The notes below the pieces were generated by a model. The model did not search any database. It had not been told where the DNA came from and saw only the letters and a program-made list of their open reading frames with translations. Of a stretch of DNA of 64,000 nucleotides, positions 4,099 to 60,790 are shown piece by piece. Made by a program: the position numbers and the translations under genes. Each line of letters starts with the position of its first letter. Within the stretch, counting starts at the first letter, position 1. This stretch comes from Blastocatellia bacterium. Lineage in GTDB: Bacteria; Acidobacteriota; Blastocatellia; UBA7656. The stretch lies in the NCBI GenBank assembly GCA_963765495.1, contig CAVXWP010000007.1:768001-832000 (forward strand). Direction: 5' to 3'.

Positions 4099-4983
4099 AT
4101 GATCGAGCGTGAAGAGGGGGTTCGGGTGGTCGCCAACCGCCCTGACAGTTCACAAGAAAACGGGCGCACGGGCATAGTTCTGTCGGCTGGGTATTTCGGT
4201 TTTTTTGCCCACGCGGGTTTCATGCTTGCAATCGAAGAACTCGGATTGGATTACGCGGCGATTGCCGGTTCGAGCGCGGGAGCGATAGTGGCGGCGCTTC
4301 ACGCCTCCGGGGTCCCGGCTTCGGAGATTATAGACCATCTGCTTTCGGTGCGAAGAGAGGATTTCTGGGACAGCACAGGGTTTGGCGGCATCTTGCGAGC
4401 GCTCATCAGGCGCGGGCGCGGGTGGACAGGTTTGCTCAGAGGCGATCTGTTTGAAGAGATGATAAGAGACCGGCTCCGCGCGCAAACATTCGAAGCGTGC
4501 CCTCGCTCGCTTTACCTCACTGCCTTTAATCTGACCACGGGGCAGGACGAGACTTTTCATTCCGGCACAATCGCAGACAAGGTGCGCGCCTCTTGCAGCT
4601 ACCCTTTCCTGATGTCGCCCAAAAAGATAAACGGCTCCGATTACTGGGACGGTGGCTTTCTGGCCAAGATACCTGTCGAGGCGCTCGTGGAGGCGGAACG
4701 ACCCGAGCGGTTGCTGATTCATTATCTGCCCACACAGAAAGAAACAAAGAGTTTTGCCGAGCGCAAATGGTCGGCTGTCGGATTGCTTGAGACGGCCCTG
4801 ATTGCAGCGCGCAGCGAAATAGAAACCCATCGCCTTGAGCGCCTGAGCGCGTTCAAGGATATAATCATCTGGGTAGAGCCGGTGGTTCCACGGGCCGGGC
4901 CAAACGATTTGTCGGCTGGCCGCGCAGCGGTCGAGGCGGCTTATCATCACGCGCTCGATACTCTTTCACATCTGAAAGTCTGA
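4099..4983 (+). CDS. Patatin-like phospholipase
   Basis: GSSAG nucleophile elbow and WDGG catalytic Asp motif; start placed at ATG 4099 (GGAG upstream) rather than 3910. Confidence 0.85.
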   Translation: MIEREEGVRVVANRPDSSQENGRTGIVLSAGYFGFFAHAGFMLAIEELGLDYAAIAGSSAGAIVAALHASGVPASEIIDHLLSVRREDFWDSTGFGGILRALIRRGRGWTGLLRGDLFEEMIRDRLRAQTFEACPRSLYLTAFNLTTGQDETFHSGTIADKVRASCSYPFLMSPKKINGSDYWDGGFLAKIPVEALVEAERPERLLIHYLPTQKETKSFAERKWSAVGLLETALIAARSEIETHRLERLSAFKDIIIWVEPVVPRAGPNDLSAGRAAVEAAYHHALDTLSHLKV

Positions 4984-5102
4984 TGCGTTCAATGATGCGT
5001 GATTCGTGATACGTGATTTGACAGGACGGTAACCTGGCTTAAACAGACCTCCTGTCTGATATTCACTCGTCACTCTTCACGCATCACTATCCACGCATCA
5101 CG
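4981..5102. repeat. Heptamer-arm inverted element (TGATGCG / TCACGCA family)
   Basis: Left arm TGATGCG-TGATTCG-TGATACG, right arm TCACTCG/TCACGCA repeats; begins at the patatin TGA stop. Confidence 0.8.
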
Positions 5103-5143
5103 TTTGGAAGCCACTGTCGCGGATGGGGTCAAAAATTTCTACC

Positions 5144-5173
5144 TTGTGAAACGCTGTCGCGGCTGGTTATAAT
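5144..5173 (+). promoter_or_regulatory. Possible sigma-70 promoter for the NHL gene
   Basis: TTGTGA-N18-TATAAT, about 260 nt upstream of the ATG. Confidence 0.4.
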
Positions 5174-5432
5174 TTCCAGTCGCCGTCTCTCAGGGCGTAA
5201 TAGATGAAGAGGGAGGGGCTTGCGGGTCCTGCCTGAAGGTCTTAATAGATTTAAAATTGCAAGGTTTTGGCTCATGACTCTTCCATGTCATGAAACAATT
5301 TACGAACAGGTGGGGTAGTACGGGTTTCAGCTGGCAGCTTATGACTCAGTGGAGCAATGAATCGAATAAATGCGCGCGGAATGCTCCGAGCCGGTCCGGG
5401 TTGCGGCTATGCAGTTAAGGAGAAATCAGAAA

Positions 5433-8589: not shown

Positions 8590-9609
8590 ATGCCGGTCAA
8601 GTATAAAGATTATTACGAGATTCTGGGTGTCAAGCGCGAGGCGACTGAGGATCAGGTCAGGCAGGCTTTTCGGAGGCTTGCGCGCAAGTATCACCCGGAT
8701 GTGAATCCGGGCAATAACGCCGCCGAGGAGAAATTCAAAGAGATAAACGAAGCTTATGAGGTGCTTTCGGATGCGGATAAGCGCAGGCGATTTGACCGGC
8801 TCGGGGCGGATTGGAAGAACGGGGCGGATTTTACGCCTCCGCCCGGCTGGAGCCACATCAACATAGATTTTAACGGACGGAGCGAGCCTGCAAGCGGCGG
8901 CATCTTCAGCGATTTTTTTGAGTCACTTTTTGGAGGCGGTCGTCAGTCGCGGCAGGGCGAGGATCGAAGGTCAGGTAGAAACAAAGGGCAGGATGTTGAA
9001 ACAGAGATGGCAATCTCGCTTGAGGAGGCCCACCGGGGAGGGATTCACAGGATTACGCTTCAAGGGGGGCGGGCCTGTAGCGCGTGCAAAGGCACGGGGA
9101 ATGCAAACGGAGTAGTCTGTCCGGATTGTCGGGGTGCGGGACACGTATTGCGCCCCAAGACGATAGACGTAAACATCCCGCCGGGGGCGCGCGAAGGGGC
9201 TGTTATAAAAGTCCCCAGACAGGGGCATCGCGGTCCTACCGGGGGCGCGTCCGGTGATTTATACATAAAGCTGAGGATCAATCCTCACTCTGTTTTCACC
9301 GTGTCTGGTGACGACATCACCGCCGAAATCCCTGTCGCGCCCTGGGAGGCGGTGCTTGGAAGCCGTATAGAAGTCCCCACTATCGAGGGGAAAATAGAGA
9401 TGAAGATACCGGCAGGGTCGCAAGGCGGGCAACGGATGCGGCTCAGAGGACAGGGATTGAACAGGCGCGTGGGAGGGCGCGGCGATCAATACGTAAAGCT
9501 CAGGATCATAGTGCCCACAAGCCCTACGGAAAAAGAGAAACGTCTCTTTCAAGAGATGGCGGAAACGACTCGTTTCAATCCGCGCAGTGGGTGGAGGGGT
9601 GACACGTGA
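8590..9609 (+). CDS. DnaJ/CbpA-family J-domain co-chaperone with a two-motif zinc finger
   Basis: YKDYYEILGV...YHPDVN J-domain, FSDFFESLFGG, two CxxCxGxG motifs, DnaJ C-terminal domain (APWEAVLG...VPT). Confidence 0.92.
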   Translation: MPVKYKDYYEILGVKREATEDQVRQAFRRLARKYHPDVNPGNNAAEEKFKEINEAYEVLSDADKRRRFDRLGADWKNGADFTPPPGWSHINIDFNGRSEPASGGIFSDFFESLFGGGRQSRQGEDRRSGRNKGQDVETEMAISLEEAHRGGIHRITLQGGRACSACKGTGNANGVVCPDCRGAGHVLRPKTIDVNIPPGAREGAVIKVPRQGHRGPTGGASGDLYIKLRINPHSVFTVSGDDITAEIPVAPWEAVLGSRIEVPTIEGKIEMKIPAGSQGGQRMRLRGQGLNRRVGGRGDQYVKLRIIVPTSPTEKEKRLFQEMAETTRFNPRSGWRGDT

Positions 9610-9716
9610 TGCGCTCGATGATGCGTGATAGGTGATTGGTGACTTTCAGGCGGGTCACCTGTTAAAGGGATATTGCAAGATTGCTAAATCACGCATCACG
9701 CATCATCGAGCGTGTC
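9601..9716. repeat. Heptamer-arm inverted element (TGATGCG family)
   Basis: CGCTCGATGATGCGTGAT ... ATCACGCATCATCGAGCG inverted arms; contains the dnaJ TGA stop. Confidence 0.85.
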
Positions 9717-9737: not shown

Positions 9738-12338
9738 ATGGATATAAATCGTTTTACTGAGAAGGCACAGGAGGCTGTTCGCTCTGCTCAAACGCTGGCC
9801 ACGAGGTACAGCAATCAGCAGATCGAGGTAGAGCATCTCTTGCTTGCGCTGCTTGAACAACCGGGTGGACTTGTCCCCTCGGTGCTCACAAGAGCGGGCG
9901 TCAATGTAGAGCCTCTCATGCAGGCCATTGAAACCGAAATCAACCGATTCCCAAAGGTCGGCGGGCCGAGCGGGCCTGTGGATCAGGTCTATATTACTGC
10001 CCGGCTGAACAAGACCTTTGTGCGGGCCGAAGATGAGGCCAAAAAACTCACTGACGAATACATAAGCGTAGAGCATTTATTGCTGGCGATCATAGATGAA
10101 GGCGGCCCGGCCTCGCGCGCGCTAAAGACGGCGGGGGCGACACGCGACCGCATAATGAAGGCGCTGGTCGAGGTTCGAGGCCATCAGCGTGTGACCTCGC
10201 AAAACCCCGAGGCGACTTATCAAGCTCTGGAGCGTTACGGACGTGATCTGACAAGAATGGCCGCCAAGGGTAAACTCGACCCCGTAATTGGTCGCGACGA
10301 CGAAATACGGCGCGTCATCCAGGTGCTTTCGCGCCGCACAAAGAATAACCCCGTGCTGATAGGCGAGCCTGGCGTAGGCAAGACCGCTATAGTAGAGGGC
10401 CTTGCGCAACGGATCATTCGCGGCGACGTGCCTGAAAGTCTCAAGGACAAAAAGATAGTGGCGCTCGATATGGGCGCGCTCGTGGCCGGGGCAAAGTATC
10501 GCGGCGAGTTCGAGGAACGACTCAAGGCTGTGCTGAAAGAGATTCAGGAATCCGAAGGCGAGTATCTTCTCTTTATTGATGAGATGCACACCATTGTAGG
10601 CGCAGGGGCGGCCGAAGGCGCTATGGATGCTTCAAACCTGCTGAAGCCCATGCTCGCGCGGGGCGAACTGCATTGCATAGGCGCTACCACGCTCAGTGAA
10701 TATCGCAAGCACGTCGAGAAAGACGCGGCGCTTGAACGCCGTTTCCAGCCCGTGCTGGTCGATCAGCCTACGGTTGAAGACACAATCTCGATTCTCAGAG
10801 GACTGCGCGAACGTTATGAAGTCCATCACGGCGTACGCATAAAAGACGCGGCGCTTGTGGCGGCGGCTGTGCTTTCGAACAGATATATCACGGATCGGTT
10901 TTTGCCCGACAAGGCCATTGACCTTGTCGATGAGGCGGCAGCCAAGCTCCGCACCGAGATTGATTCGATGCCTGCCGAGTTGGATGAGAGCCTGCGCCGC
11001 ATTATGCAGCTTGAGATCGAGCGCGAAGCGCTCAAGAAAGAGACCGATACCGCATCGAAAGAACGTCTGAGCAAGCTCGAAAAAGAGCTTGCCAATCTGA
11101 GGGCCAACGCCGATCAGCTAAAGGCACAATGGCAGGCCGAAAAGGAAGAGGTGCAGAAGGTCCGCGCCATACGCGAAGAGATCGAGCAGACCCGCGTGGC
11201 GATAGAGCAGGCCGAGCGCGAGTATGATCTCAATCGCGCCGCCGAACTCCGTTACGGCAAGCTCAATCAGCTTGAGAAGCAGTTAATTGAGTACGAAGAG
11301 GCTCACGACAAACAGGCGGGTCGCACTCGTCTGCTCAAGGAAGAGGTTGATGAAGAGGACATAGCCGAGGTGGTCAGCCGATGGACGGGTGTGCCCGTGT
11401 CGAAGTTGCTCGAAGGCGAGCTTCAAAAGCTGCTATCGCTCGAAGAGCACCTGCATCGCCGCGTGATCGGACAGGATGAGGCTGTCAGCGCGGTCAGTGA
11501 CGCCGTCATACGCGCCCGTTCGGGACTCAAAGACCCGAATCGCCCGATAGGTTCATTCATCTTTCTGGGGCCTACGGGGGTGGGCAAGACCGAACTTGCG
11601 CGCGCGCTCGCGGAATTTCTTTTCGACGACGAGCACGCGATGATCCGCATAGACATGTCCGAGTATCAGGAGAAGCACACCGTAGCCCGACTGATAGGCG
11701 CGCCTCCGGGATATGTAGGCTATGAGGAAGGCGGGCAATTGACGGAAGCCGTCAGGCGACGTCCCTATTCGGTCCTGCTTTTTGACGAGATAGAAAAAGC
11801 TCACCACGATGTATTCAACGTGCTGCTTCAGATACTCGACGACGGCAGGCTGACGGATGGGCAGGGACGGATCGTGAATTTCAAAAACGCGATCATCATC
11901 ATGACATCGAATATCGGAAGCCACCTGATACTCGATTACAGCGGGCAGATGGAAGGCGAGCGATACGAACAGATGAAGGCGAGCGTGCTCGATGCGCTGC
12001 GTCATCATTTCAGACCCGAGTTCCTCAACCGGGTGGATGAGATCATAGTCTTCCACTCGCTCACGGAAGAAGACCTGAAGCAGATCGTAGAGATTCAGCT
12101 TGCGCGGTTGCGCTCCCGGCTTTCGGAGCGAAGAATAACTCTGGAGTTGAGCGAAGAGGCGAAGGCGCACATCGCACGAGCGGGTTACGATCCCGTTTAT
12201 GGAGCGCGCCCGTTGAAGCGCGCCATTCAGCGCGAGATCGAAACGCCTCTGTCGCGTCTGATACTGAAAGGCGATGTCAAAGACAACTCCGTCATGAAGA
12301 TTGACATGAAGGATGGCGCAGTAACTTTTGAGGGATGA
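9738..12338 (+). CDS. clpB: ATP-dependent disaggregase ClpB
   Basis: Two AAA+ modules ([16 protein letters not shown]), coiled-coil middle domain, [13 protein letters not shown] and [13 protein letters not shown]; start MDINRFT with GGGAGG SD. Confidence 0.97.
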
Positions 12339-12496
12339 AATAAGGGATGAGGGATGAGGGATGAAGGATGAAAAGGACTCTGAGGGATTATTCTGATAAA
12401 GAGCATGCTGGTTTTAATCAAGCAATTGCGCAAAACTCTTTTTCATCCCTCATCCCTCATCCCTCATCCCTCCTGAGTCCTTCATCCTTCATCCTT
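12331..12496. repeat. Heptamer-arm inverted element (GGATGAG / CTCATCC family)
   Basis: (GGGATGA)n left arm, (TCATCCC)n right arm; contains the clpB TGA stop. Confidence 0.9.
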
Positions 12497-12700
12497 TCTT
12501 TGGTATGATATTGGCACTGACGTTTGACAAAAGAAAGACGAACGGACGCTTACCTTGATGATGGAGAACCCATCGTGCTTAAAGAGTTCTTCCCAAATGA
12601 GGATGGACCTTTACAACCTGGACGCGCACAGGTCAGATCAATAGACCCGCCGCCCGGACGCAGGCGCTATGCAGGCAAATCTGGCGGGTAATTAAGGAGG

Positions 12701-13849
12701 ATGGGCAAAATAATGATCTCTTACGAAAACATACGCCATTTACAACAATTTCCATCCGGTCCCGATTCTCAGGTGCTCTCTTTATATGTGAATGTGGACC
12801 AGTCAGAGGCGGCCAACCTCAATCGCGGTTTTGAGACGGTGGTTGAAAATCTGTTTCGCCGTATGGGGGAAGATATAACTTCGAGCGGGAGCGACAGACA
12901 TAGACTCGATATCGAGTGCAAGCGTGTGCTTGAATTTCTCAAAGACTACACGCCGAAAGGAGTGGGACTGGTCGTATTCAGCGACTCGAAACACGATTTA
13001 TGGTGGCAGAGGGATTTGCAGGTAAATGTGGAGACCGAAGGCCGATGGTCTCCGCAGCCCTGGGTCAGGCCCCTGCTCGAGCTTCTGGAAGATCACGATC
13101 ATTTCGGCGTCGTGCTGATCGACAAACAGCACGCGAAGATTCTCACGGTTGACGCGACCGGAATCAATCAGCACGCCGATATACAGTCGGATGTGCCGAA
13201 TAAACACGCGACCACGGGCACTGATCATATCTGGTCGCAAACTCAGATGGACCGCGACCACACCAAACACATCAAGTGGTACGCGAAGCGCGTGGCCGAT
13301 GAGCTTGCCGCCGTAGTTGACGGCAATAAAATCACTCGTTTGGTCATAGGCGGTCCCGTCGAGGCGACTACGATATTCACGGGTGAGTTGCCCCGGCGGT
13401 TTCAGCAGATGATCATAGATACGATCTCGATTCCAATCGATGCCGGACACGAACGTCTTTCAAACGAATTACGAGCCATTCAGGAGAGGGCCGAACACGC
13501 CGATGAGTTCAAGCTGGTCGAATCCATGATCACGTCGGCTCATAAGGGCGACCGCGCGGTGCTTGGAATCTCAGAGACTCTTTCGTCCATCCAGGAGGGA
13601 AGAGTTCATGTAATGGTAGTCGCCAGAGAGTATCACGCGCAGGGCAAAGAGTGTGATAACTGTCGCGTGCTTACGGCAGACGGATTGGAGAAATGCTCTT
13701 TTTGCGGTGGAAAACTCGAACCGGCTCCCGACCTAATCAACCGGGCGTCTCACAAAGTATTAGATCAAGGTGGAAGGGTGCAGATTGTTTCAGGCGCGGC
13801 TGCCGACAGGCTCTCAGAGGCTGGCGTCGGCGCCGTGTTAAGATTCTAA
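12701..13849 (+). CDS. Bacterial archaeo-eukaryotic release factor 1-like protein (baeRF1/VLRF1-like, eRF1 domains 2-3, Zn ribbon)
   Basis: VLSLY N-terminus, RPLLELL...GVVLID core, VPNKH...WSQ loop where aRF1 has VPGKH.KGGQS, eRF1-domain-3 tail (AVLG...EGRV...CDNC...CSFC...GVGAVLRF). Start may be ATG 12713. Confidence 0.8.
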   Translation: MGKIMISYENIRHLQQFPSGPDSQVLSLYVNVDQSEAANLNRGFETVVENLFRRMGEDITSSGSDRHRLDIECKRVLEFLKDYTPKGVGLVVFSDSKHDLWWQRDLQVNVETEGRWSPQPWVRPLLELLEDHDHFGVVLIDKQHAKILTVDATGINQHADIQSDVPNKHATTGTDHIWSQTQMDRDHTKHIKWYAKRVADELAAVVDGNKITRLVIGGPVEATTIFTGELPRRFQQMIIDTISIPIDAGHERLSNELRAIQERAEHADEFKLVESMITSAHKGDRAVLGISETLSSIQEGRVHVMVVAREYHAQGKECDNCRVLTADGLEKCSFCGGKLEPAPDLINRASHKVLDQGGRVQIVSGAAADRLSEAGVGAVLRF

Positions 13850-13853
13850 TTTA

Positions 13854-13916
13854 GGGGCCGGGGGTCGGGGGCCAGTTGCGAAATCAATCGCTCACCGGCC
13901 CCCGGCCCCCGGCCCC
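13854..13916. repeat. Heptamer-arm inverted element (GGGGCCR family), short
   Basis: GGGGCCG-GGGGTCG-GGGGCCA ... CCGGCCC-CCGGCCC-CCGGCCCC. Confidence 0.85.
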
Positions 13917-13926
13917 AGGAGAAAAT

Positions 13927-19055: not shown

Positions 19056-19074
19056 AGATTTGTTTCGCTTATCA

Positions 19075-19179
19075 GTGATGCGTGGTTCGTGATGCGTGAT
19101 CCGTGACTCTAATGCAATTAGCTGTTTACAGGTTCATCACTCGCCTCATAAATCACGCATCACGATTTACGCATCACGA
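19075..19179. repeat. Heptamer-arm inverted element (TGATGCG family)
   Basis: GTGATGC-GTGGTTC-GTGATGC-GTGATCC ... TCACGCA-TCACGAT-TTACGCA-TCACGAA. Confidence 0.85.
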
Positions 19180-24490: not shown

Positions 24491-24573
24491 GTGATTCGTG
24501 ATTCGTGGCCTTCGGCAAAGTTTTTTTACAGGTCTATTGCCTGTCGTACGAATCACGAATCACGAATTACGAA
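24491..24573. repeat. Heptamer-arm inverted element (TGATTCG variant)
   Basis: GTGATTC-GTGATTC-GTGG ... ACGAATC-ACGAATC-ACGAATT-ACGAA. Confidence 0.8.
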
Positions 24574-27758: not shown

Positions 27759-27868
27759 GGCGTGAGGCAAGTGATGCAAGATAAAAGAGGGGGGCATTTC
27801 AGGCAGAATATGGACATGTTGATCGGTATTTTCGCTGACTTCACGCCTCACGCCTCACGCCTCACGCG
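27759..27868. repeat. Heptamer-arm inverted element (TGAGGCG / CCTCACG variant)
   Basis: GCGTGAGGCAAGTGATGC ... TCACGCC-TCACGCC-TCACGCC-TCACGCG between convergent stop codons. Confidence 0.75.
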
Positions 27869-27873
27869 TCTAC

Positions 27874-30361: not shown

Positions 30362-30577
30362 TTTAGTTTTGAGTTTTGAGTTTTGAGTTTTGAATTTTGA
30401 GTAGGCATGTAGAAGTAATCCGGCAAATTGTGCTGAAGCGAGCAAGCCAGAGGCAAGAAGCCGAATGCGTATATGAATAGGTGGTTCCCGACTCCGGCAC
30501 TTTTACCGAAAACTCAAAACTCAAAACTCAAAACTCAAAACTCAAAACTCAAAATTCAAAACTCAAAACTCAAAACT
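30362..30577. repeat. Heptamer-arm inverted element (TTTTGAG / CTCAAAA family)
   Basis: About 5 TTTTGAG units and about 10 AAAACTC units flanking a spacer of roughly 105 nt. Confidence 0.92.
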
Positions 30578-30593
30578 CCCCGCTCATTACTTC

Positions 30594-33035: not shown

Positions 33036-33100
33036 AATCTTGTTACACTCTCTTTTAGCTTTCCCCATCCCCGGGCAGGGCTATTGCTTCTAGATTTGCC

Positions 33101-39048: not shown

Positions 39049-39160
39049 CACCAGGTTTATTGATAGCGCCAGATTTATTTGAGAGTTGAGATTTCAAATC
39101 TAGGAGTTTCCCGGGAAGGGCCAAAAGGCGAGCGGCCCTATGGAGAGGAAACCCGGGGAT

Positions 39161-46525: not shown

Positions 46526-46617
46526 TGATGCGTGAAGAGTGATGCGTGACTTTCAGGCCATCACCTTTTGACATGGATAGCTGATTTCATAAATCACGCA
46601 TCACGCATCACGCATCA
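46526..46617. repeat. Heptamer-arm inverted element (TGATGCG family)
   Basis: TGATGCG-TGAAGAG-TGATGCG ... (TCACGCA)3; spacer similar to that at 9638-9690. Confidence 0.88.
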
Positions 46618-46633: not shown

Positions 46634-49600
46634 TCAGCAGGAGAGCACCTGGCTGAGCGTGGCTTTGATGTCGTCCAGATGAATAGGCTTGAAGAGGACT
46701 TCGTTTACAAGCTCGTGACGATGTTTCACGGTTTCAGGCGGCAGGGCGTATCCGGTTATCAGGACTATTTTTGTGTCGGGCCAACGGCGGCGAATCTCGC
46801 GCGCTACGGCCCATCCGTCCATCTCAGGCATTGCGAGGTCGGTGAATACCAGATCGAATTTCCCGGTTTCAAGCTTGGCCAGAGCTTCACTGCCGCTTGC
46901 CGCCTCTTCCGTGTAATGGCCGGTTGAATTGAGCATGCCTGCCATCGCTTCTCGCACTCGCTCGTCATCGTCAATGACCAGGATGCTGGCCGCTTCCAGG
47001 CTTGAGGTGCGGGCCTGCGCCATCTTTTTCAACGCGGCAGACCCTGTCGGAAGCGAGATTGCGAAAGTCGAACCACGACCCAGAACGCTTCTGACTTCGA
47101 ATCGTCCGCTGTGGCGCTCGATGATGCTGTAGCTCACGGCAAGTCCCAGCCCCATCCCCTTTGCGCCCTTCGTGGTGAAGAACGGCTCAAAGATGTGGCG
47201 GCGAACTTCCCGGTTCATTCCCACCCCGCTGTCTATAAAGCTCACCTTCACCAGCGAGTCTTTCGCCTCAGTAACGATACGCAGCCGCCCGCCCATAGGC
47301 ATCGCGTCGAGCGCGTTCAGAATCAGGTTGACGAATACCTCGCGCAACTCCGATGCCGACCCCAGAGCCGGGGGGACCTGCTTCAGATCGAGATCGACTT
47401 CGTAGTTGATGCCGCGAGCCTGCGCATCGTCTCTCCATCGAGCGCAGGTTAGCGTGGTCGAGTCCTGGATAAGCTGGTTGACATCAATCGAGCCATAAAC
47501 GGTCTGATCCTGTTGCAGGCCAAAGCCCTGTATGCGTTTGACGGTCTGCGCGCCGTCGAGCGCGGCGCTTTCGATAATCTCTAACCGCTGGATGGCACGT
47601 TCATCCTTGCAGTCACGCTTCATCAACTGGGCGTGGCCGAGCACGGCGGCCAGTATGTTGTTAAAGTTGTGCGCGACGCCTGATGCCAGCTGGCCAAGCG
47701 CCCTGAGCTTTTCGGCCTGCGCCGCTCGCTCGCTCGCAAGGCGATCTTCGGTTATATCGCGCGCTATCCCGAGCACGCTCGACACCCGCCCTTCATCGTA
47801 GATGGGCGTGTAGGTGACTAACAGCAGTCGTGCTTCGCCCTCTCTGGTCAGCCCTCGCATTTCGAATGTCTGCGCCTGTCCGGCGAGCACGCGCGCGAAT
47901 CGTTCAAGGGTTATATTTTTATCCTCAGGCGGTATGAACAGCCAGCAATGAGCGTTTGTCAACTCTTCACGAGAGTAGCCGGAAAGCGTAGTCAGTTGTT
48001 CGTTAAACCAGACAAGACGACCTTCGGGCACGACCGCAAAAATGGCGTCGTTTGCATGCTCTATGAGCTTCGCAAGAAATCCGCGCTGCTCGCGAGCCAC
48101 GGCTTCGGCGGCGCGCAACTCCGATAAATCACGCACTATGCAGACCGCGCCGAGCGAGTCTTTTTCCACCTGGCTTATCACGGGAGAAATAGTGACCAGA
48201 ACGGGCCGCGCCATGTGCTCGGGCACAAGCTCGAAGGTTATCGCTTTCCCCGTTTTTAATACCTTCGAGACCATGCATTCTTCGCCCTGTATTCCCTGCA
48301 TCAGAGTACAGCATCTGCGACCGAGTAATTCCTGTATGCTTGTTCCCTCAAGGTTTGCCGCCATCTTATTGACCCGCTTGAGCAGGCCCTGTTGATCGAA
48401 TATGAATATGCCGTCTGTGAGCGCGTCAAAGGTGGCTTCCCATTCGTGCTTGCCGTGAGAGACCTGCTCGAACAATTCGGCGCGCTCAAGCGCGATAAAG
48501 ACCTGATTTGCCGCCGCGCGCATGATCTCTACTTCATCATCGGTCCATTCGCGTGGTCCGTTCTCCATGGCGGCCGTGATCGTGAGGCGCGGAGCGCCCC
48601 TATAGAAGACTCCTACCGCCACGAGCGCGCGCATATTGAGCGGGCCGAACAGACGGTCGATGTATGGAGCAAAGCGCGGGTCGGCTTCAACATCGGCGCA
48701 GATGAGAGAGTCGGTCTCAAGCATCTTCCCGAGATCGGGATACCCATCTACCGAAATAGTCCCCACGGGTCTGGATGTCTCTCCACGGCTGTACTGGCAC
48801 TCGACCGCCCATGTCCCCGCCTTCTGATCGAGTCTGCCGATAAGCACCTTGTCGACCGAGAGATATTCGGCAAGCTTGCCGGCCACGAGCGGGAAAATCT
48901 CGCTCAGGCGGTTCGACTGGTTGATGCCGTGAATGATGTGGCTGATGAGTGCTTCGCGCTGGGCCGCCTGTCTGGTCTCTTCAAAGAGATGGCCGTGAGA
49001 GACGGCCACTTCTATCTGGGCGGTAATCAATTCGACCATAGCGATCTCGCAGACATTCCATTTGCGGAAACAGTCGGTCTGGACAATCGAGAGCGCGCCC
49101 CAGAATTGATCGTTGACGAATATCGGGCAGATGATTTCGGAAAGACTTATAGTCTCGACCTGCCAGGCGCGAACGGTCGCCGCCTGCTCGGGATACCGGG
49201 CGATAAAGGCAGGCACGTCGTCTATGATGAGTGTGCGGCGCGAATCGTCCAACTGGCGCATCAGGTAATCTCCGGCCTTTGCCGGAACGTTTTGCATCGA
49301 GAGAGCGGGATCGTCCACATACTCGGCGACAACTACCATCTCGTCGCCGGTCAGCTTGCGAAAATTTGTGCGGTTTGCCCCGAGTGCGCGACCGAGCTCC
49401 TGCACGGCTACCTTGAGCGCCTCCTGGAGATCGAGCGAGCGACGGATGGCCGATACTATCAGATTGACCTGAGTTGCCTGCTCGGCCGACTCTCTGGCCT
49501 TGCGGTAGAGTTCAGCCTGATAGAGCGCGACGGCTGTCTGTTCGGCCACGAGTCTGACAAGCGCAATCTCTTCTTCGGAAAAGCTCCTCGGCTCGTTGCA

Positions 49601-50596
49601 CTGCTCAAGGGCCAGGGCGGCGACCGTTTCGCCGTTATAGGCAACAGGGGCGAGCGCCAGCGCGCGCACGCCTATGCCTATGTTCAGGGCGCGCGCTTCC
49701 TGATGCTTCTCCTCCGTATCGGACAGGATTATCATCTCGCCCGCAAGAAACTGCTCTCTGTTAAGACCCGGTTCGATGATGAGGCTCGCGCCCAGCAGAC
49801 TCGGCACGAGAACGCTTGCGCGGTACTCGGCTCGCGCCGTCATAGAGGGAAATTCGTTCTGCTCGCTAAATCTGTTTTCTCCAAGCTCGGAGCGCGCATA
49901 GATGACCGTACGCGCTACGCCAAGCGCGGTCCCCGCGGCCTCGACTGCTACTTTGAGCACATCATCGACGCCGGTTGCCATCCTTATAGCGGTCAACAAC
50001 CTGTTGATCATCGCCTCGCGCTCGACGGCGATTCTGGTCATCTCTTTCAAGCGGGCCTGATGAATTGCCAGGCTCAGGGCCGAGGCTATTGCCTGCAAAC
50101 AATGTTTCTCTTGCTCAGAGAATCGTTTGCCCCTGGCCCTGTAGATTATCAGGGTCGCGACCGCCTTCGATTCGATTGATATGGGAGCGATCAGGATGGA
50201 CTTTATCTGCTGACCGGATGTTGAAGATTTCGTCAGGCCCGATAGAAAAGCGACCACCTTCGGATCCGATTCGGCATCGATTTCGATCAGGCGAGTTTGA
50301 TCGCTTATGCCCGAGGTAATCTCTTCCTCAACCGCCGCGAATGTGGCCCCGCTCGCCGTCGCCGTATTTGAAGAGTTATAAGCTGCTGCAAACCTCAACC
50401 TGTATTCACCGAGGCCGATAATGACCGCGCGAGTCGCGTCGAGATTGCGCCCGACCTCTTCCGCCGCAACTGAAAGCACATCTTTCAAATCAACGGATGT
50501 GGCAATACAGTTGTTGATCCGGTCTATCAGTGCCCAGTGTTTTGTCCGGTCATCACGTCCGACAAACAGATTTTCTTTTAAGGCAGAGATTCCCAT
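46634..50596 (-). CDS. Hybrid sensor histidine kinase (multiple GAF, 2 PAS, HisKA, HATPase, REC)
   Basis: Repeated GAF units, WEATFDA PAS, GVAHNFNN H-box, NLILNALDAM, DSGVGM, FFTTK, GLGL, C-terminal REC (TDLAMP). Confidence 0.92.
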   Translation of the reverse strand: MGISALKENLFVGRDDRTKHWALIDRINNCIATSVDLKDVLSVAAEEVGRNLDATRAVIIGLGEYRLRFAAAYNSSNTATASGATFAAVEEEITSGISDQTRLIEIDAESDPKVVAFLSGLTKSSTSGQQIKSILIAPISIESKAVATLIIYRARGKRFSEQEKHCLQAIASALSLAIHQARLKEMTRIAVEREAMINRLLTAIRMATGVDDVLKVAVEAAGTALGVARTVIYARSELGENRFSEQNEFPSMTARAEYRASVLVPSLLGASLIIEPGLNREQFLAGEMIILSDTEEKHQEARALNIGIGVRALALAPVAYNGETVAALALEQCNEPRSFSEEEIALVRLVAEQTAVALYQAELYRKARESAEQATQVNLIVSAIRRSLDLQEALKVAVQELGRALGANRTNFRKLTGDEMVVVAEYVDDPALSMQNVPAKAGDYLMRQLDDSRRTLIIDDVPAFIARYPEQAATVRAWQVETISLSEIICPIFVNDQFWGALSIVQTDCFRKWNVCEIAMVELITAQIEVAVSHGHLFEETRQAAQREALISHIIHGINQSNRLSEIFPLVAGKLAEYLSVDKVLIGRLDQKAGTWAVECQYSRGETSRPVGTISVDGYPDLGKMLETDSLICADVEADPRFAPYIDRLFGPLNMRALVAVGVFYRGAPRLTITAAMENGPREWTDDEVEIMRAAANQVFIALERAELFEQVSHGKHEWEATFDALTDGIFIFDQQGLLKRVNKMAANLEGTSIQELLGRRCCTLMQGIQGEECMVSKVLKTGKAITFELVPEHMARPVLVTISPVISQVEKDSLGAVCIVRDLSELRAAEAVAREQRGFLAKLIEHANDAIFAVVPEGRLVWFNEQLTTLSGYSREELTNAHCWLFIPPEDKNITLERFARVLAGQAQTFEMRGLTREGEARLLLVTYTPIYDEGRVSSVLGIARDITEDRLASERAAQAEKLRALGQLASGVAHNFNNILAAVLGHAQLMKRDCKDERAIQRLEIIESAALDGAQTVKRIQGFGLQQDQTVYGSIDVNQLIQDSTTLTCARWRDDAQARGINYEVDLDLKQVPPALGSASELREVFVNLILNALDAMPMGGRLRIVTEAKDSLVKVSFIDSGVGMNREVRRHIFEPFFTTKGAKGMGLGLAVSYSIIERHSGRFEVRSVLGRGSTFAISLPTGSAALKKMAQARTSSLEAASILVIDDDERVREAMAGMLNSTGHYTEEAASGSEALAKLETGKFDLVFTDLAMPEMDGWAVAREIRRRWPDTKIVLITGYALPPETVKHRHELVNEVLFKPIHLDDIKATLSQVLSC

Positions 50597-50604: not shown

Positions 50605-50732
50605 AGGGATGAGGGATGAGGGATGAGGGATGAAAAGGACTCTAGGGTTACGTTCCGATAAACTGGCTTGACCAATTACCGAAATGTTTCCCCACAATCC
50701 TTTTCATCCCTCATCCCTCATCCCCCATCCCT
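50605..50732. repeat. Heptamer-arm inverted element (GGATGAG family)
   Basis: (GGGATGA)4 ... (TCATCCC)n; inner GGATGAAAAGGACTCT shared with 12366-12381. Confidence 0.9.
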
Positions 50733-56005: not shown

Positions 56006-56158
56006 ATGGGGGTCAGGGGCCGGGGGTCGGGGGCCGGTGATTAAATACATCGTATAGTAACTCGGTTGATCTTGCGTTGACTCTGTATCTCAAATCTCAA
56101 ATGAGCAGACCTTAAATCAATTTCTGGACCGGCCCCCGGCCCCCGACCCCCGGCCCCC
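56006..56158. repeat. Heptamer-arm inverted element (GGGGCCR family)
   Basis: GGGGTCA-GGGGCCG-GGGGTCG-GGGGCCG ... CCGGCCC arms; overlaps the GH3 3' end. Confidence 0.9.
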
Positions 56159-57901
56159 TCCAAGGGAATGGCCGATCTCGTAAAAGCCGGGTAGGTCTAT
56201 CGGCAGCTTGCCTTTGAACTCTATCTCGCCGAGGACGGCCCTGAGCGATGCCTCTTCGGCAGCCGGATAGTATTCGTATGCGAGAATATAAGTCGGCAAC
56301 TCGGGCACGAATGCTATCAGATAAGGGCTGCCGTAAAGCACAAAGACAAAGGGTTTCTCAATTGAAGATAAATATTTGAGCAAATCGATTTCGCCTTCGC
56401 TCACATCTATCGAGCCTTTGAAGGCCGAAATTCGAATAAATCCGTTTACGATTACTACATCGGCAAGCAGAGCGAGTTTTCTTATCAGATCAAGCTCGCG
56501 CGGCGCGGTTTGCTCCGTCACATAGACGTTTGTCGTGTTGGCGTGTCTCTGCTTCAAGCCCTCGTAAAATGTGCGGCCCGGCGCGCCGTCACTCCAGCCC
56601 GCGGCGTTGTCTACGATCGTTATAAAGAGGACTTTCTGCTCTTCTGTGAGTTTGAGCGGCAGCACGCTTTTTTTATCGCGCACAAGCGTAATGGCGTTTT
56701 CGATTATCTCTTGAGCCGTCTTTTGATGCTCGCTTGTGCCGAGCATACGGTCTATTTTGTTGATGTCGATCATTCTGTTTTTGTCGAGTCCGAGGCGCGC
56801 CTTGGCCGCCAGTATCCGGCGCACGGACTGATCTATTCGGGCAGTTGTGATCTCGCCCGTTTCGAGTGCGCGCTTTATGGCTGTAAATGTCTGCTCGACG
56901 GTTGGCGGATAGAGGATAATATCCGCACCGGCCTTGATGGCGCGGACGGCCGCCTCGCCTTCCGGGTAGTGGCTTGTTATGCCCTGCATAACCATCGCGT
57001 CCGTGAAGATCACGCCGTCGAATTTCAGATCTCCGCGCAATACCCCGGTCAGCATTTTGGGCGAAAGCGTCGCGGGCAGCCCTTCGGTTTCGATACGCGG
57101 CAGGGCGATGTGCGCGCTCATCACCCCACCGACACCTTCTTCGATGGCGGCTTGAAACGGCGGAAGTTCAATCCGGTCGAGCCGCGCGCGGTCTACGTCT
57201 ATCGCCGGAAGCTCAAGATGAGAATCCACGGAAGTGTCCCCGTGACCGGGGAAGTGCTTGGCCGTAGCCATAACGCCGGCCGATTGTGATCCGCGAATGT
57301 AGGCGCGGGCCATCTCGGAAACCCTCTGCGGGTCGCTGCCAAAGGAACGAATGTTTATGATCGGGTTACGCGCATTATTGTTTACGTCAACGACCGGATA
57401 AAAATTCACATTGATGCCGAGGGCGCGAGCCTCTTCGGCGGTGATGCGACCGGCCTGATATGCCATATCAGGGTTTGCGGTTGCGCCCATTGCCATGCCT
57501 CGCGGCAATCGAGTAGCGCCGAGATAGCGGATTCCGGCTCCGCCCTCGAAATCCGCCGTGATCAAGAGGGGCACTTTAGCCATCTCTTGCATATGATTTA
57601 TCAGGAGCGCGACCCCCGCCGGTTCGTGCCGCGTATTGACTTCGCCAAGCATGTGATAACCGCCTACGTGAAACTCGGTGATGTCGCGACGGATTTGCCG
57701 AAAAGTATCGGTATCTTGCGAAATGAACATTCCGACTACGGCAGGGATTATCAATTGCCCGATCTTCTCATCCACGCTCATGGAACGCAGCGTCTTTTCA
57801 ACCCACGGATCATCGGAGGACATTCGCTTATCTGTCGCGGGCAAATAAGCAAAAACATTTGAAGCGGTAATCATCAAGAACGCGAGCAGTATTCGTCTCA
57901 T
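56117..57901 (-). CDS. GH3 beta-N-acetylhexosaminidase (NagZ-like), secreted
   Basis: EKIGQL, ADFEGG, RSFG, KHFPGHGDT..DSH NagZ motif, FTDAM.M. Confidence 0.9.
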   Translation of the reverse strand: MRRILLAFLMITASNVFAYLPATDKRMSSDDPWVEKTLRSMSVDEKIGQLIIPAVVGMFISQDTDTFRQIRRDITEFHVGGYHMLGEVNTRHEPAGVALLINHMQEMAKVPLLITADFEGGAGIRYLGATRLPRGMAMGATANPDMAYQAGRITAEEARALGINVNFYPVVDVNNNARNPIINIRSFGSDPQRVSEMARAYIRGSQSAGVMATAKHFPGHGDTSVDSHLELPAIDVDRARLDRIELPPFQAAIEEGVGGVMSAHIALPRIETEGLPATLSPKMLTGVLRGDLKFDGVIFTDAMVMQGITSHYPEGEAAVRAIKAGADIILYPPTVEQTFTAIKRALETGEITTARIDQSVRRILAAKARLGLDKNRMIDINKIDRMLGTSEHQKTAQEIIENAITLVRDKKSVLPLKLTEEQKVLFITIVDNAAGWSDGAPGRTFYEGLKQRHANTTNVYVTEQTAPRELDLIRKLALLADVVIVNGFIRISAFKGSIDVSEGEIDLLKYLSSIEKPFVFVLYGSPYLIAFVPELPTYILAYEYYPAAEEASLRAVLGEIEFKGKLPIDLPGFYEIGHSLGGGRGSGAGGRSRN

Positions 57902-57913
57902 AAAAATCTTTCT

Positions 57914-58084
57914 TGGGGGCCAGGGGCCAGGGGCCGGGGGCCGGTTCAGAAATTGATTTCTCTTCTACTCATCAGAGATTTGAAAGCTCAAATCTCAAAT
58001 ACGAAACCTGCAAAAGATCGACCGACTTACTACTGACCAGTGACCACCGATCACCGGCCCCCGGCCCCCGGCCCCTGGCCCCCC
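57914..58084. repeat. Heptamer-arm inverted element (GGGGCCR family), inverted copy of 56006-56158
   Basis: GGGGGCCGGTTCAGAAATTGATTT matches the reverse complement of 56113-56136 at 23/24 positions. Confidence 0.9.
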
Positions 58085-59883
58085 ATCATGGCTTCTTCTC
58101 TGGGGGTCGGCGCATCCTCGGGTGTCTCCCAGCCTGCGCGACCCAGGTTCCATGTGATTGCGGTTCCGGCCAGTAATCCTACAACTATGAAAACGATCCC
58201 TTTGCTCATCTGGCCAAGTATCACCTCGCCTATGCCGAAAAGAAATGCGTAAACGAGCACGCAGCCAAGCAGCCAGTTTATGATGTTGGGTGTGAGCGGC
58301 TCCCCTTCGGCCACGCCGGATTCGGCAGCTACGTGCCGCCAGCCGCCGCCTCCCGGTCGCACTTTGCGATAGAAGGAGATCAGTTTTTCGCGCGGTTCGG
58401 GAGCGGTGGAAAACGTCACGATCACCCAGACCATCGTTGTGATCGCTACTGTAGCGACGAGCTTATAGGCGAAGAACAGATCGCCTGTCTGTGGGGCCTG
58501 CGGGTCGAGACCGAATAGCGGTGGGCCGAGCCTATCAAGGGTCACAGAGACTATCAGCGCCGATGCCATCGAAGAGATTTCCGACCATGCGTTCACGCGC
58601 CACCAGTACCAGCGCAGAATATACACAAGACCGGTTCCCGCGCCTATACTCAACAGCAGTTGCCAGGTGTCGCGGATGGATTCCAGGGTGAGCGAAAACA
58701 ACCCGGCTACGACGACGAGCAGTGCCGTCGCAAGCCGCGACACAAAGACATAATGGCCTTCGGTAGCGGATTTGTTTACAAAGCGGCGATAGAAATCATT
58801 TATCAAATAAGAACTGCCCCAGTTGAGTTGCGTCGCTATCGTAGACATATAAGCCGCCGCAAATGATGCCATCATCAATCCGAGCAGGCCGCGCGGCAGC
58901 ACATCGAGCATTATTCGAATAAATCCCGATTCTTTATCCGCAAGCGTGGGGTAGAGGACCACCGTGCACAGCGCCGTCACTATCCAGGGCCACGGCCTGA
59001 GCGCGTAATGGGCTACGTTGAACCAGAGCGTGGCAAGCAACCCGTGCTTCTCGTTCTTTGCCGAAAAGATGCGTTGCGCGACGTAGCCGCCGCCGCCCGG
59101 TTCCGCGCCCGGATACCACGACGCCCACCACTGCACTCCGAGGTAAACGGCGAAGGTTGCAGCGGGCAGCCACGGACTATCGAATCCGGGCCACAACCCC
59201 GTAGCCTTGTCCGCGCTCCCGAAATGTTCGCTCACTCCCGCGATCAGGCTGTCCATTCCGCCAACGCGCCGCACGCTGAAGACGGCCAGCACTATGCAAC
59301 CAAACATAGCTATGCAGAATTGCACCGCGTCGGTTACGACTACGCCCCAGAAACCTGAAATCACCACGTAGAGCGCGGTGATGCCGAGACAGAGAAAAGT
59401 AGCCTGCCACGCGTTTATACCGAGCGAGAGGTTGAGCACCTTGACCATAGCCAGAGTCACCCATCCCATGATGATGCAGTTTATCAACAGCCCGAGATAG
59501 ACCGCGCGAAAGCCGCGCAGGAAAGCGGCCGGTCGCCCGGCATAACGCAACTCCGTCAACTCAACATCGGTCATGACACCCGACCTGCGCCAGAGCCGCG
59601 AGAAGAGAAAAACCGTGAGCATTCCGCTCGCTACAAGATTCCACCAGAGCCAGTTTCCGGCCACGCCGTTACTGGCTACGAGCCCTGTGACGACAAGAGG
59701 CGTGTCGGCGGCAAAGGTGGTTGCCACCATCGAAGTCCCGGCAAGCCACCAGGGCATCGAGCGATCCGAAAGAAAAAACTCGTCGGTCGAGCGGCCCGCC
59801 CGCTTTGCATAATAAAGCCCTATTGCCAGCGACAGCCCGAAATAGGCTCCGATGATTGCCCAGTCAACAATTGTGAGTTTCAT
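58051..59883 (-). CDS. Sodium:solute symporter (SSS family)
   Basis: DEFFL..RSMPWWLAGTSMVATTFAADTPL, TDAVQF, AQRI, AAYMST, WYWWRVNA; many TM helices. Confidence 0.92.
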   Translation of the reverse strand: MKLTIVDWAIIGAYFGLSLAIGLYYAKRAGRSTDEFFLSDRSMPWWLAGTSMVATTFAADTPLVVTGLVASNGVAGNWLWWNLVASGMLTVFLFSRLWRRSGVMTDVELTELRYAGRPAAFLRGFRAVYLGLLINCIIMGWVTLAMVKVLNLSLGINAWQATFLCLGITALYVVISGFWGVVVTDAVQFCIAMFGCIVLAVFSVRRVGGMDSLIAGVSEHFGSADKATGLWPGFDSPWLPAATFAVYLGVQWWASWYPGAEPGGGGYVAQRIFSAKNEKHGLLATLWFNVAHYALRPWPWIVTALCTVVLYPTLADKESGFIRIMLDVLPRGLLGLMMASFAAAYMSTIATQLNWGSSYLINDFYRRFVNKSATEGHYVFVSRLATALLVVVAGLFSLTLESIRDTWQLLLSIGAGTGLVYILRWYWWRVNAWSEISSMASALIVSVTLDRLGPPLFGLDPQAPQTGDLFFAYKLVATVAITTMVWVIVTFSTAPEPREKLISFYRKVRPGGGGWRHVAAESGVAEGEPLTPNIINWLLGCVLVYAFLFGIGEVILGQMSKGIVFIVVGLLAGTAITWNLGRAGWETPEDAPTPREEAMMGGQGPGAGGR

Positions 59884-59902
59884 TCGATCTCCCTGAGCGA
59901 TT

Positions 59903-59991
59903 GCGTGATGAGTTGTGCGTATGCGTGAAGCGTGATTAGTGCAAATGACAATCAATTTATGGTAATCTGACCGCTCATTGAGCGCGCATCA
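59903..59991. repeat. Degenerate TGATGCG-family element
   Basis: GCGTGATGAG...GCGTATGCGTGAAGCGTGAT with a weak right arm (CGCATCATGC). Confidence 0.5.
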
Positions 59992-60076
59992 TGCTTTACG
60001 CAACACTGATGTATACTATCTTAGTCGGCGCTTGGCAATTCGACGACAGGCTTTGACTACTGTTTCAGAGGATTAG

Positions 60077-60673
60077 ATGATTAGAAAAATTATTGCAGGT
60101 CTTTCGATGACCGCGCTTCTGTTCAGTCTGAGTTGCGGCGGATCAAAAAACACAAACGCCCCGGCAAACGCCAATACAAACGTCGAGAGCGAGGACTACG
60201 GCGAGATAAACGACACCTGGATAGCCTGGAAAGTCAAAATGGCTCTGATAGCCGACACTCGCACAAGCGGGTTTGAGACCGATGTGGCTTCCAATGATGG
60301 CGCGGTAACGCTTAGCGGCAAAGTTGATGCCCCTGAAGCAAAGTCGGCAGCCGACGAGGTGGCAAAAGCTATCGAGGGCGTCAAGAGTGTGGATAATCAA
60401 CTTCAGGTCGTGCCGGAGGCAAAGCGAGTTCAGGTAGACGCAAAGGATGACAAGATCGTCGAGGCAATCGAAAAAATAACCGGCAATGATCCGAAACTCC
60501 AGAGCCTGACGCTGACTGCCGACAGCGATAACGGTGTGGTCACAATCAACGGAACGGTTGACACTCAGGAAGAACTGCTCGCCTACGCGCAGGCGGTGCG
60601 AAAGATTCCCGGAGTAAAAGCCGTAATAACGGCTCCCGTGATCGTCACTGGCGAGGATAAATCCGGGCAGTAG
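60077..60673 (+). CDS. Double BON-domain lipoprotein (OsmY-like)
   Basis: Lipobox LSC, two BON domains (GAVTLSG.V...GVKSVDNQL; GVVTINGTV...GVKAV). Confidence 0.9.
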   Translation: MIRKIIAGLSMTALLFSLSCGGSKNTNAPANANTNVESEDYGEINDTWIAWKVKMALIADTRTSGFETDVASNDGAVTLSGKVDAPEAKSAADEVAKAIEGVKSVDNQLQVVPEAKRVQVDAKDDKIVEAIEKITGNDPKLQSLTLTADSDNGVVTINGTVDTQEELLAYAQAVRKIPGVKAVITAPVIVTGEDKSGQ

Positions 60674-60790
60674 GCAGTAGGCAGTAACGGAGTTGGGTAC
60701 CACCTATTCATATGCTTATACCGTGCTCTCTTTAGAAGTAGTCGTCAATTCAGCATCAACTGCCTACTGCTTACTGCTTACTGCCTGCTG
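60666..60790. repeat. Heptamer-arm inverted element (GCAGTAG / CTACTGC family)
   Basis: (GGCAGTA)3 ... (ACTGCYT)4; contains the stop codons of both convergent genes. Confidence 0.9.

Follow-up and report, generated by a model that had tools for sequence, protein, structure and literature searches.

The DNA stretch analysed here (referred to as the window) comprises 64,000 nucleotides, positions 768001-832000 of contig C7, from the genome of a soil acidobacterium of the Blastocatellia (7.30 Mb in 17 contigs; G000 in our numbering). Short inverted elements lie between its protein-coding genes, each consisting of a run of 7-nt units, a spacer, and a run of the reverse-complement units. A reading made earlier from the sequence alone (the sequence-only reading) had listed 14 such elements and likened them to known bacterial repeats. 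We conclude that these loci are probably members, lacking an open reading frame (ORF), of a family of about 600 foldback cassettes of the type known as the intervening sequence (IVS) of 23S rRNA. ORF-less copies are called minis below.

Arrays were located with Tandem Repeats Finder (TRF), and an element was recorded automatically when a TRF array had a reverse-complement partner at most 250 nt away. In the first part of the window, period-7 TRF rows were obtained at 4993/5063, 9688, 12343/12443, 13854/13895, 19075/19152, 24491/24548 and 27841; in the remainder, they appeared at 30365/30509, 46526/46593, 50605/50704, 56008/56129, 57916/58054 and 60666/60759. By these criteria, 12 of the 14 loci were recovered as clear inverted pairs of period-7 arrays (Table 1), and they folded into hairpins with z from -5.9 to -14.5 (100 shuffles per locus). 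TRF and direct reading also bore out the description of one architecture with several unit families, the units being as listed before. The other two loci were less clear. The locus at 27759 combines a clean right arm (TCACGCC x3.9) with a degenerate left one and folds weakly (z -2.4). The locus at 59903, with no TRF row and no convincing hairpin, may be a copy in decay. When 40 ORFs of the window were compared with Pfam, no transposase domain was found, in agreement with the sequence-only reading, and no PF05635 ORF; heat-shock, transport and signalling genes were seen instead. All 14 loci lie between protein-coding genes, and none is in helix 25 or helix 45 of 23S rRNA.

Table 1. Heptamer-armed loci of the window, in window positions (z, folding z-score; x, number of units)
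Feature	Positions	Details
Solo G-rich arm GGGAGCC AGGGGCC GGGGGCC, without detectable partner	980..1001	TRF
GTGANNN-family element	4981..5103	left arm ~4981-5019 (TGATGCG/TGATTCG/TGATACG), right arm 5063-5101; z -6.7
GTGANNN-family element between dnaJ-like gene 8590-9609 and clpB	9601..9712	z -6.5
TGAGGGA-family element	12329..12496	clpB stop 12336-12338 inside left arm; z -14.1
GGGGCCR-family element	13854..13916	z -9.7
GTGANNN-family element	19071..19178	right arm ends 2 nt from stop of gene 19181-19795 (-); z -7.4
TGATTCG (GTGANNN-family) element	24491..24573	begins 2 nt past stop of carboxyltransferase gene 22890-24488; z -5.9
Weak member	27759..27870	right arm TCACGCC x3.9 at 27841-27867; between convergent stops 27758 and 27874
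TGAGTTT-family element	30362..30578	left arm x5.4, right arm x10, spacer 106 nt; z -8.9
GTGANNN-family element	46526..46617	16 nt from stop of sensor kinase gene 46634-50596 (-); z -6.6
TGAGGGA-family element	50605..50732	between kinase gene start and response-regulator/HD gene stop (50738); z -14.5
GGGGCCR-family element	56006..56158	small nested GAGATTT-type hairpin (ATCTCAA x2.3, 56087-56102); z -8.1
GGGGCCR-family element	57914..58083	nested GAGATTT hairpin; z -10.4
Doubtful locus, scattered GTGA-type words	59903..59990	divergent gene context; z -0.4
TAGGCAG-family element between convergent genes	60666..60796	z -6.4

The contact between elements and gene ends is close. The patatin-like gene (3910-4983) ends in a TGA that also belongs to the first unit of the element at 4981, and the dnaJ-like stop (9607-9609) sits within a GTGATGC unit of the element at 9601. 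The element at 13854 occupies the gap from the stop of the baeRF-family gene (13849) to the clpP ribosome-binding site (AGGAG at 13917). The right arm of the element at 30362 ends 15 nt from the stop of the gene at 30594-33068 (-), and the stops of the two genes around the element at 60666, 60077-60673 (+) and 60778-61641 (-), are both inside its arms. GGGGCCR arms have no stop codon, and the ORFs of a glycosyl hydrolase and a solute symporter read through a right arm: the ORF 56117-57901 (-) runs through the stop-free right arm of the element at 56006, and the ORF 58051-59955 (-) through that of the element at 57914. It may be noted that these arms (56117-56158 and 58051-58083) give the two proteins repeat-encoded C-terminal tails that end in the spacer.

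In the whole genome, period 7 accounted for 1641 of the 4708 TRF rows, the runner-up being period 9 with 654. The genome-wide scan for inverted period-7 arms that the sequence-only reading had proposed gave 602 merged elements, with a median length of 104 nt and a median spacer of 45 nt (range roughly 15-115 nt). When 1597 merged period-7 arrays were compared with their neighbours, same-unit neighbours were inverted in 469 cases and direct in 4. A Smith-Waterman comparison found a reverse-complement partner (within 250 nt) on the expected side for 1039 of 1522 G/C-skewed arrays, and on the wrong side for 2, so that the arms are paired beyond what independent microsatellites would give; among the controls, score 11 was reached 19 and 18 times by direct copies and 13 times at a random place. 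In all 469 pairs the 5' arm had more G than C, the 3' arm being its C-rich complement. As the element is symmetric, this G>C-first polarity is true on both strands. A keto-rich (G+T) 5' arm suits the units of some relatives; as a rule wider than G>C it was rejected, because it fails for ordinary hairpins (62 vs 64) and for 4 of 27 cassettes. At longer gaps (250-4000 nt), same-unit pairs were polar in 64 cases and reverse-polar in 56, so that most of them belong to adjacent elements and do not bound a large cassette. Nesting of heptamer arms within heptamer arms (LLRR) was not detected at TRF thresholds, and LLR/LRR runs numbered only 8; the nesting noticed by eye consisted of short inner arms or other repeat types.

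The arms hold a median of 4.1 units, with 3-5 units in 808 of 938 arms, and the copy numbers of left and right arms are uncorrelated (r=0.09). Within a unit, 4-5 nt form an invariant core and 2-3 positions are free (e.g., GTGA-T-N-C and GGGG-N-C-N), the apparent conservation of the core being inflated by the anchors used for phasing. By unit, the elements were grouped into the families GTGANNN (291 elements), GGGGCCR (68), TGAGGGA (66), TAGGCAG (60), TGAGTTT (40), RGATTTT (25) and GAGATTT (8), with 44 elements having other units.

Arrays of a G-rich heptamer, GGGAATC, with four units preferred, have been described in Xanthomonas campestris and X. axonopodis (Rehm et al. 2015, PMC4692102), and it was proposed that they act as G-quadruplex-forming regulatory repeats. 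The same function might be considered here, as runs of four G occur in the GGGGCCR arms (68 elements), and the Xanthomonas and Nostoc units formed G-quadruplexes in vitro, according to the text of that paper available to us. However, G-runs are confined to this family (68 of 602 elements). The GTGANNN (291), TAGGCAG (60), TGAGTTT (40) and RGATTTT (25) elements lack them and yet have the same architecture, polarity and position. Unlike the situation for GGGAATC, a G-quadruplex reading therefore cannot cover most of the units and is not general here; as an explanation of the elements it is very improbable.

Clustering of the spacers, another check that had been proposed, showed that the spacer of 311 of the 602 elements is homologous to that of another element. 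The links are mostly inside one arm family (TAGGCAG 467, GTGANNN 366, TGAGGGA 172), with some across families (TAGGCAG-GGGGCCR 70, TAGGCAG-TGAGTTT 19). In the window, the spacer of the element at 12329 matches other TGAGGGA copies at 82-86% identity over ~130 nt, and that of the element at 30362 has a ~25-nt module in common with TAGGCAG elements. Three 100% identical pairs were set aside as assembly duplicates with identical flanks, after which spacers 97-99% identical at unrelated loci remained. (Contig C11 shares identical stretches, flanks included, with the ends of C7 and C10, which is assembly redundancy.) The near-identical-spacer copies differ in unit number and unit variants; hence the arms evolve much faster than the spacers. 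Spacer orientation with respect to transcription is random (32:30, 22:13, 10:7, 10:7 and 6:9), and the outer flanks showed no excess of a pre-existing stem (4.00 vs 3.99). Whole elements, arms and spacer together, have been dispersed as copies. In two places, C8:194436-194773 and C9:271012-271381, a palindromic repeat (AAATAGGCCGGGACGG...) sits in the spacers of heptamer elements.

Independent microsatellites, arising by slippage at each locus, would be expected to differ in copy number between arms and between copies, and this is what is seen. They would not give 469 inverted against 4 direct neighbours with strict polarity, a small set of shared units with homologous spacers, or a copy number peak at four with 3-5 units in most arms. 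Half of the elements share family-specific spacers with unrelated loci and are therefore not independent microsatellites. The probability of this explanation is close to nil, slippage alone being refuted by the pairing, the polarity and the shared spacers.

The position of the elements relative to genes was determined using a rough gene map made for this analysis. The elements were inside genes in 14 cases, between same-strand genes in 411, between convergent genes in 132 and between divergent genes in 44; the junctions in the whole genome number 3765, 746 and 740 for the same-strand, convergent and divergent arrangements, respectively. The distance from the facing stop codon to the edge of the element had a median of +1 nt, with quartiles of -4 and +7 (n=675). 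The stop was within the delimited arm in 288 cases, and 0-10 nt ahead of the arm in 259 (histogram sum). Both stops were abutted in 84 of the 132 convergent cases, and the upstream stop in 339 of the 411 tandem cases. This rule is true for every family, including GGGGCCR, whose unit contains no stop codon; most 5' arms carry stop codons in all three frames. The median convergent gap was 110 nt when an element was present and 94 nt when there was none; subtracting the element left a residue of 1.5 nt, so that the element takes the place of the usual intergenic content. An intrinsic (Rho-independent) terminator was ruled out by the lack of a U-tract 3' of the hairpin: the next 12 nt contained a mean of 3.55 T compared with 4.18 on the control side, and six or more T in 13.4% of the 411 tandem cases compared with 21.2%.

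The sequence-only reading had suggested a search for filled versions with an ORF between the arms, and such versions exist. PF05635 (S23p/Avd-like, "23S rRNA intervening-sequence protein") has four matches in the genome, and all four genes are flanked by G-rich and C-rich heptamer arrays with gaps of 374-405 nt. Larger members thus carry a PF05635 gene where the minis have a spacer. The arm units of the four cassettes are all different (GGGGCCA, TGAGTTT, TGAGGGA and GGATTTT/AGATTTT), and the proteins are 15-21% identical to the first of them. One of the four, S23a, matched the pentameric X. campestris XCC0516 structure 2GSC with an E value of 2.6e-26. The genome holds eight reverse transcriptase matches, several of them at contig ends and none beside a cassette, and no reverse transcriptase, template repeat or variable repeat was adjacent to the S23p cassettes. 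It also encodes RNase III.

PF05635 was present in 24 of 30 relatives. Both flanks were available at 31 loci, the 4 described above and 27 of the relatives; inverted arms were found at 27 of the 31, with a period of 7 in 24, 8 in 2 and 5 in 1; G exceeded C in the first arm at 26 of these 27 loci, the remaining one being otherwise. A wider set was assembled from relatives of one S23p paralog in Acidobacteriota, Chloroflexota, Methylomirabilota, Armatimonadota, Nitrospirota, Planctomycetota, Actinomycetota, Deltaproteobacteria and one cyanobacterium. Of its 80 loci, 73 were analysed (6 were cut at contig ends, and L059 was left out). Arms were present at 72 of the 73, the left arm had period 7 in 69, and G>C came first in 72. 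The units around these genes are highly varied. With respect to the upstream neighbour, the PF05635 gene was co-oriented at 37 loci, opposite at 2 and unclear at 34.

The association may be read in another way, with the arrays as predicted binding sites for an S23p/Avd-like pentamer, a 4-5-nt core per 7 nt, and the minis working in trans as RNA or DNA; this would be a protein-plus-sites system more than a transposon. The PF05635 genes nearly always having their own arms, the invariant core with 2-3 free positions and the ~four units per arm agree with this. An arm was as complementary to its own partner as to other arms of the same family (0.582 vs 0.581, n=418), a weak test because arms are alike within a family. 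Further, in a comparison of six genomes, all kin and each sampled over 140-200 kb, paired period-7 arms numbered 10, 10 and 7 per 200 kb in relatives with 22, 13 and 12 PF05635 genes. In two without a match there were 2 (in 140 kb) and 0, and in a third, also without a match (G020), 0 with period 7 and 19 with period 8. The correlation thus comes from six related, partly sampled genomes. The period-8 arms of G020 occur without PF05635, and for the largest mini families the genome lacks a cassette of matching unit. We hold this explanation to be unlikely, with roughly one chance in eight left to it. The 19 period-8 pairs of G020, a genome of the same order, lie in 200 kb of its C1 (L155-L164) and are mostly C-rich first; they may be a sister system with a different ruler and partner.

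Both 23S rRNA genes of the genome are 3133 nt long, compared with the 2925 positions of the model. Each contains an ORF-less TGAGTTT element (C7:682027-682119 and C7:380273-380365) at the apex of a hairpin at about positions 1206-1226 of the Rfam large-subunit (LSU) model, i.e., at helix 45, the classic IVS site. The element part of the insert resembles ~20 other places in the genome at 72-78% identity. By alignment, the site is empty in three relatives (G002, G015 and G009), which have a short hairpin with a small closing loop, and a DNA search showed it to be without an insert, by the spacing of the flanks, in four more (G020, G024, G027 and G029). G025 carries another insert there, comparable in size and with words resembling GAGATCT. 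Helix 45 is therefore a clean filled/empty polymorphism, filled here and empty in seven relatives, and the elements settle both a few bases past stop codons and at the helix 45 apex of 23S rRNA. Of the empty-site comparison that had been proposed, this part succeeded, and an intergenic pair with exact junctions was not obtained. One public DNA run contained the stretch, at about 3x and as short contigs, and yielded only joints between the arms of different copies; no RNA run was listed for it. The sequence-only reading had named unpaired arms and a lack of presence/absence polymorphism as findings that would tell against it; with the pairing described above and helix 45, neither was found.

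Two junctions of the window were compared with relatives. After clpB, 10 genomes showed heptamer arms in 4 (with four units), 8-mer arms in 1, ordinary GC-rich hairpins in 4 (by eye) and nothing in 1. For the junction of the baeRF-family gene with clpP, 7 genomes could be resolved, namely, this genome and 6 of 14 relatives. In 6 of these 7, heptamer-armed elements, which belong to four unit families, extend from the stop codon to the ribosome-binding site. Before clpP in G003 (L204), a TGATGCG/TGATCCG element has ~20 units in the right arm and 5 in the left. The baeRF-family gene itself (12701-13849) is a bacterial archaeo-eukaryotic release factor family 10 gene; it has clpB on one side and clpP on the other, with a heptamer element towards each. 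Between clpB and this gene, relatives have a conserved ORF of ~130 aa, of which a promoter-like stretch and a short 3' remnant survive here (12500-12700).

These junctions bear on the view that the elements are structural or regulatory hairpins serving the host (3'-end stabilisers, operon insulators, or processing or termination sites), selected at gene ends and renewed in place. Most genera have a hairpin at the two junctions, with differing units; the elements abut stop codons and stand in for the usual intergenic content; ordinary hairpins of this genome likewise tend to have G>C first (95 vs 34); and transcripts in Xanthomonas start or stop at such repeats more than at controls, as given in the available text of PMC4692102. 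Against this stand the T content after the hairpin, which is below that of the control side, the random orientation of spacers with respect to transcription, identical spacers at unrelated loci, the copies within 14 genes and within 23S rRNA, and the few or no paired arms in relatives without PF05635. Such host hairpins are, in our estimate, an unlikely account of the elements, though one that keeps an appreciable share of the probability.

A third possibility, close to the REP/RAYT analogy of the sequence-only reading, is that the elements are palindromes of the repetitive extragenic palindromic (REP) or REPIN type, moved by RAYT, a Y1 transposase. Hundreds of palindromic copies lie between genes and close to gene ends, GTAG is part of the TAGGCAG unit, and the genome has two Y1_Tnp matches. 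However, period-7 arrays were absent within 1 kb of either Y1 gene, the one on C17 is flanked by a different, non-heptamer REP (GTAGGGGCAGGGC...), and most units have no GTAG. To our knowledge, REPs are not built of tandem heptamers. The analogy was not supported, and mobilisation by RAYT is highly improbable. More generally, the elements resemble REP, BIME and REPIN sequences as dispersed intergenic palindromes near gene ends, and differ from them in having no RAYT association and in having tandem-heptamer arms of several unrelated unit families. A separate REP/RAYT system is present in this genome, at C17:144209-144484 and C7:112203-112547, where REPs of the GTAGGGGCAGGGC type flank a Y1 gene, and one doublet of such REPs was located within the spacer of a heptamer element.

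Cyanobacterial short tandemly repeated repetitive (STRR) sequences are tandem heptamer repeats in intergenic DNA. The present elements share with them and with the TAACTGA repeats the abundance of intergenic tandem heptamers and the stop codons in the units. Unlike those direct arrays, the inverted pair is the rule here, and the host is an acidobacterium with few copies of the HIP1 octamer GCGATCGC (0-8 per contig), although the tandem-heptamer feature itself is matched. In Beggiatoaceae, TAACTGA repeats formed 169 direct sets and one inverted set in the Beggiatoa genome (MacGregor 2015, PMC4679880), and Nostoc was said to have 'only a few paired repeats' (PMC4692102); both statements are taken from the portions of these papers available to us.

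MITEs (miniature inverted-repeat transposable elements) and Foldback elements offer a further comparison, the eukaryotic Foldback elements having inverted arms built of tandem subrepeats. Terminal inverted repeats, by which MITEs are recognised, are present here as the inverted arms, and like both kinds the family has ORF-less and ORF-bearing versions and many dispersed copies. Unlike in MITEs, the ORF-bearing versions encode PF05635 and not a transposase, and the minis have only the arms in common with the ORF-bearing cassettes. Target duplications of at least 6 nt were not detected, the arm ends being fuzzy.

The closest known kinds are the 23S rRNA IVS and the paired heptamer repeats of Xanthomonas. 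The IVS of Coxiella burnetii has a 28-bp stem and an S23p ORF and is cleaved by RNase III; its origin and function were stated as not known, as far as the available text goes (Warrier et al. 2016, PMC4990558). As in the IVS of C. burnetii, Leptospira and Salmonella (PMC4990558), the inverted ends form a stem, the 28 bp of Coxiella being 4 x 7, and the PF05635/S23p ORF in the loop is optional, as in the four resident cassettes here; moreover, one ORF-less TGAGTTT member lies at helix 45 of both 23S genes. Unlike IVS, the copies in the window lie between protein-coding genes and number hundreds per genome, and the arms are tandem heptamers, a feature not reported for IVS in the accessible parts of PMC4990558.

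As described in the accessible text of PMC4692102, the Xanthomonas GGGAATC repeats are located at or over stop codons, occur as 70-75 convergent pairs in which the G-rich strand leads, and are mostly transcribed. The elements studied here are similar in having about four 7-nt units (median 4.1), convergent pairs (469) and a location at or near stops (+1 nt), and dissimilar in comprising at least seven unit families compared with one. In the supplement of that paper, repeat #15 overlaps the start codon of XCC0516, which is the protein of the solved S23p structure 2GSC. In the main text, in the form available, 'intervening', 'helix bundle' and XCC0516 do not occur, and an association with mobile elements is not stated. 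Paired heptamer repeats are thus already published for Xanthomonas, and a link to S23p or IVS was not found in the literature searched: no paper tying heptamer arms to S23p or IVS was met with in a search that left subscription papers outside. PF05635 is also described as resembling Avd of diversity-generating retroelements (DGRs) in the accessible part of PMC10053308. A second point of likeness is the match of S23a to the pentameric 2GSC. Unlike Avd in DGRs, the cassettes have no reverse transcriptase, template or variable repeat beside them, the matches for reverse transcriptase being elsewhere in the genome.

Some of the results weigh against an IVS-type mobile family, and we set them out together. 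The inner sequences of the four S23p cassettes gave no match to the mini spacers (blastn-short, E<0.05), so that the minis are not recognisable as deletion derivatives of the resident cassettes. The largest mini families, GTGANNN with 291 elements and TAGGCAG with 60, have no resident cassette with the same unit and yet contain spacers 97-98% identical, although relatives do hold cassettes with GTAGGCA and GTGACGA arms. No mobilising enzyme was identified for the elements. Direct repeats of at least 6 nt at the element ends were not in excess, occurring at 0.040 for own ends and 0.032 for permuted ones, the arm ends being fuzzy. An intergenic filled/empty pair with exact junctions was not seen among the relatives compared, which included no close strain. 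At the clpB and clpP junctions, different genera have different units at the same site, for which in-situ replacement is also possible. Finally, ordinary non-heptamer hairpins in this genome have G>C in the 5' arm in 95 cases against 34, with 22 equal; as they share this lean, the polarity may come from a general selective filter instead of marking a mechanism.

With these points taken into account, we still regard an IVS-type foldback family as the probable identity of the window loci. Such a family would spread as selfish DNA by a copy-and-insert route, with S23p as a candidate accessory factor and not as a demonstrated transposase. Its elements would be tolerated where a transcribed stem of 25-35 bp does little harm. 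This reading draws on the requirements of RNase III, of Rho and of palindrome stability. The three-frame stops in most 5' arms would end translation at the edge of the element. The G-rich-first polarity would keep the C-rich arm from being single-stranded RNA and so would avoid the loading of Rho. By likeness to the published rRNA intervening sequences, the stem is probably cut by RNase III. A number of about four units (28 bp) could represent a balance between a recognisable stem length and the instability of long palindromes.

It is also conceivable, though we consider it quite unlikely, that the arms do not travel with the copied element and are rebuilt, or continually re-homogenised, by a dedicated repeat-adding reaction, with the S23p/Avd-like pentamer as a ruler or cofactor. 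Such a reaction would explain the fixed period of 7 and the ~four units across phyla despite the drift of the unit, the differences in number and variants between the two arms of one element, and the different arms on copies with identical spacers. It would also explain why the G-rich strand runs 5' to 3' into the element, like telomeric repeats on facing broken ends. The sole partner of Avd known to us is a reverse transcriptase. If true, the repeat-adding reading would amount to a new kind of bacterial mobile element, free of a transposase and with telomere-like end synthesis.

The excess of heptamer repeats in many bacteria, the origin of the 23S IVS and the function of PF05635/S23p, a very widespread family related to the DGR protein Avd, may possibly be one and the same matter. 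All the forms occur in this genome: the ORF-less copies number ~600 and fall into at least seven unit families, the cassettes with an ORF number four, and each of the two rRNA operons has a copy. Any mechanism has to meet the rules observed here, namely, a G-rich-first polarity, ~four units per arm, a start near the stop codon, and arms that change faster than spacers. The elements also matter for annotation, as they supply stop codons, repeat-encoded protein tails and false N-terminal extensions, which is relevant to gene callers and to finders of CRISPR arrays and other repeats. A figure legend in PMC10910872 lists the 23S rRNA IVP among the domains associated with CRISPR arrays; what array finders detected there might be the tandem arms that enclose PF05635 genes.

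The window also has perfect or nearly perfect tandem repeats (15 and 18 nt) at 39044-39079, 43888-43927 and 61459-61497, which bear no relation to the heptamer elements.

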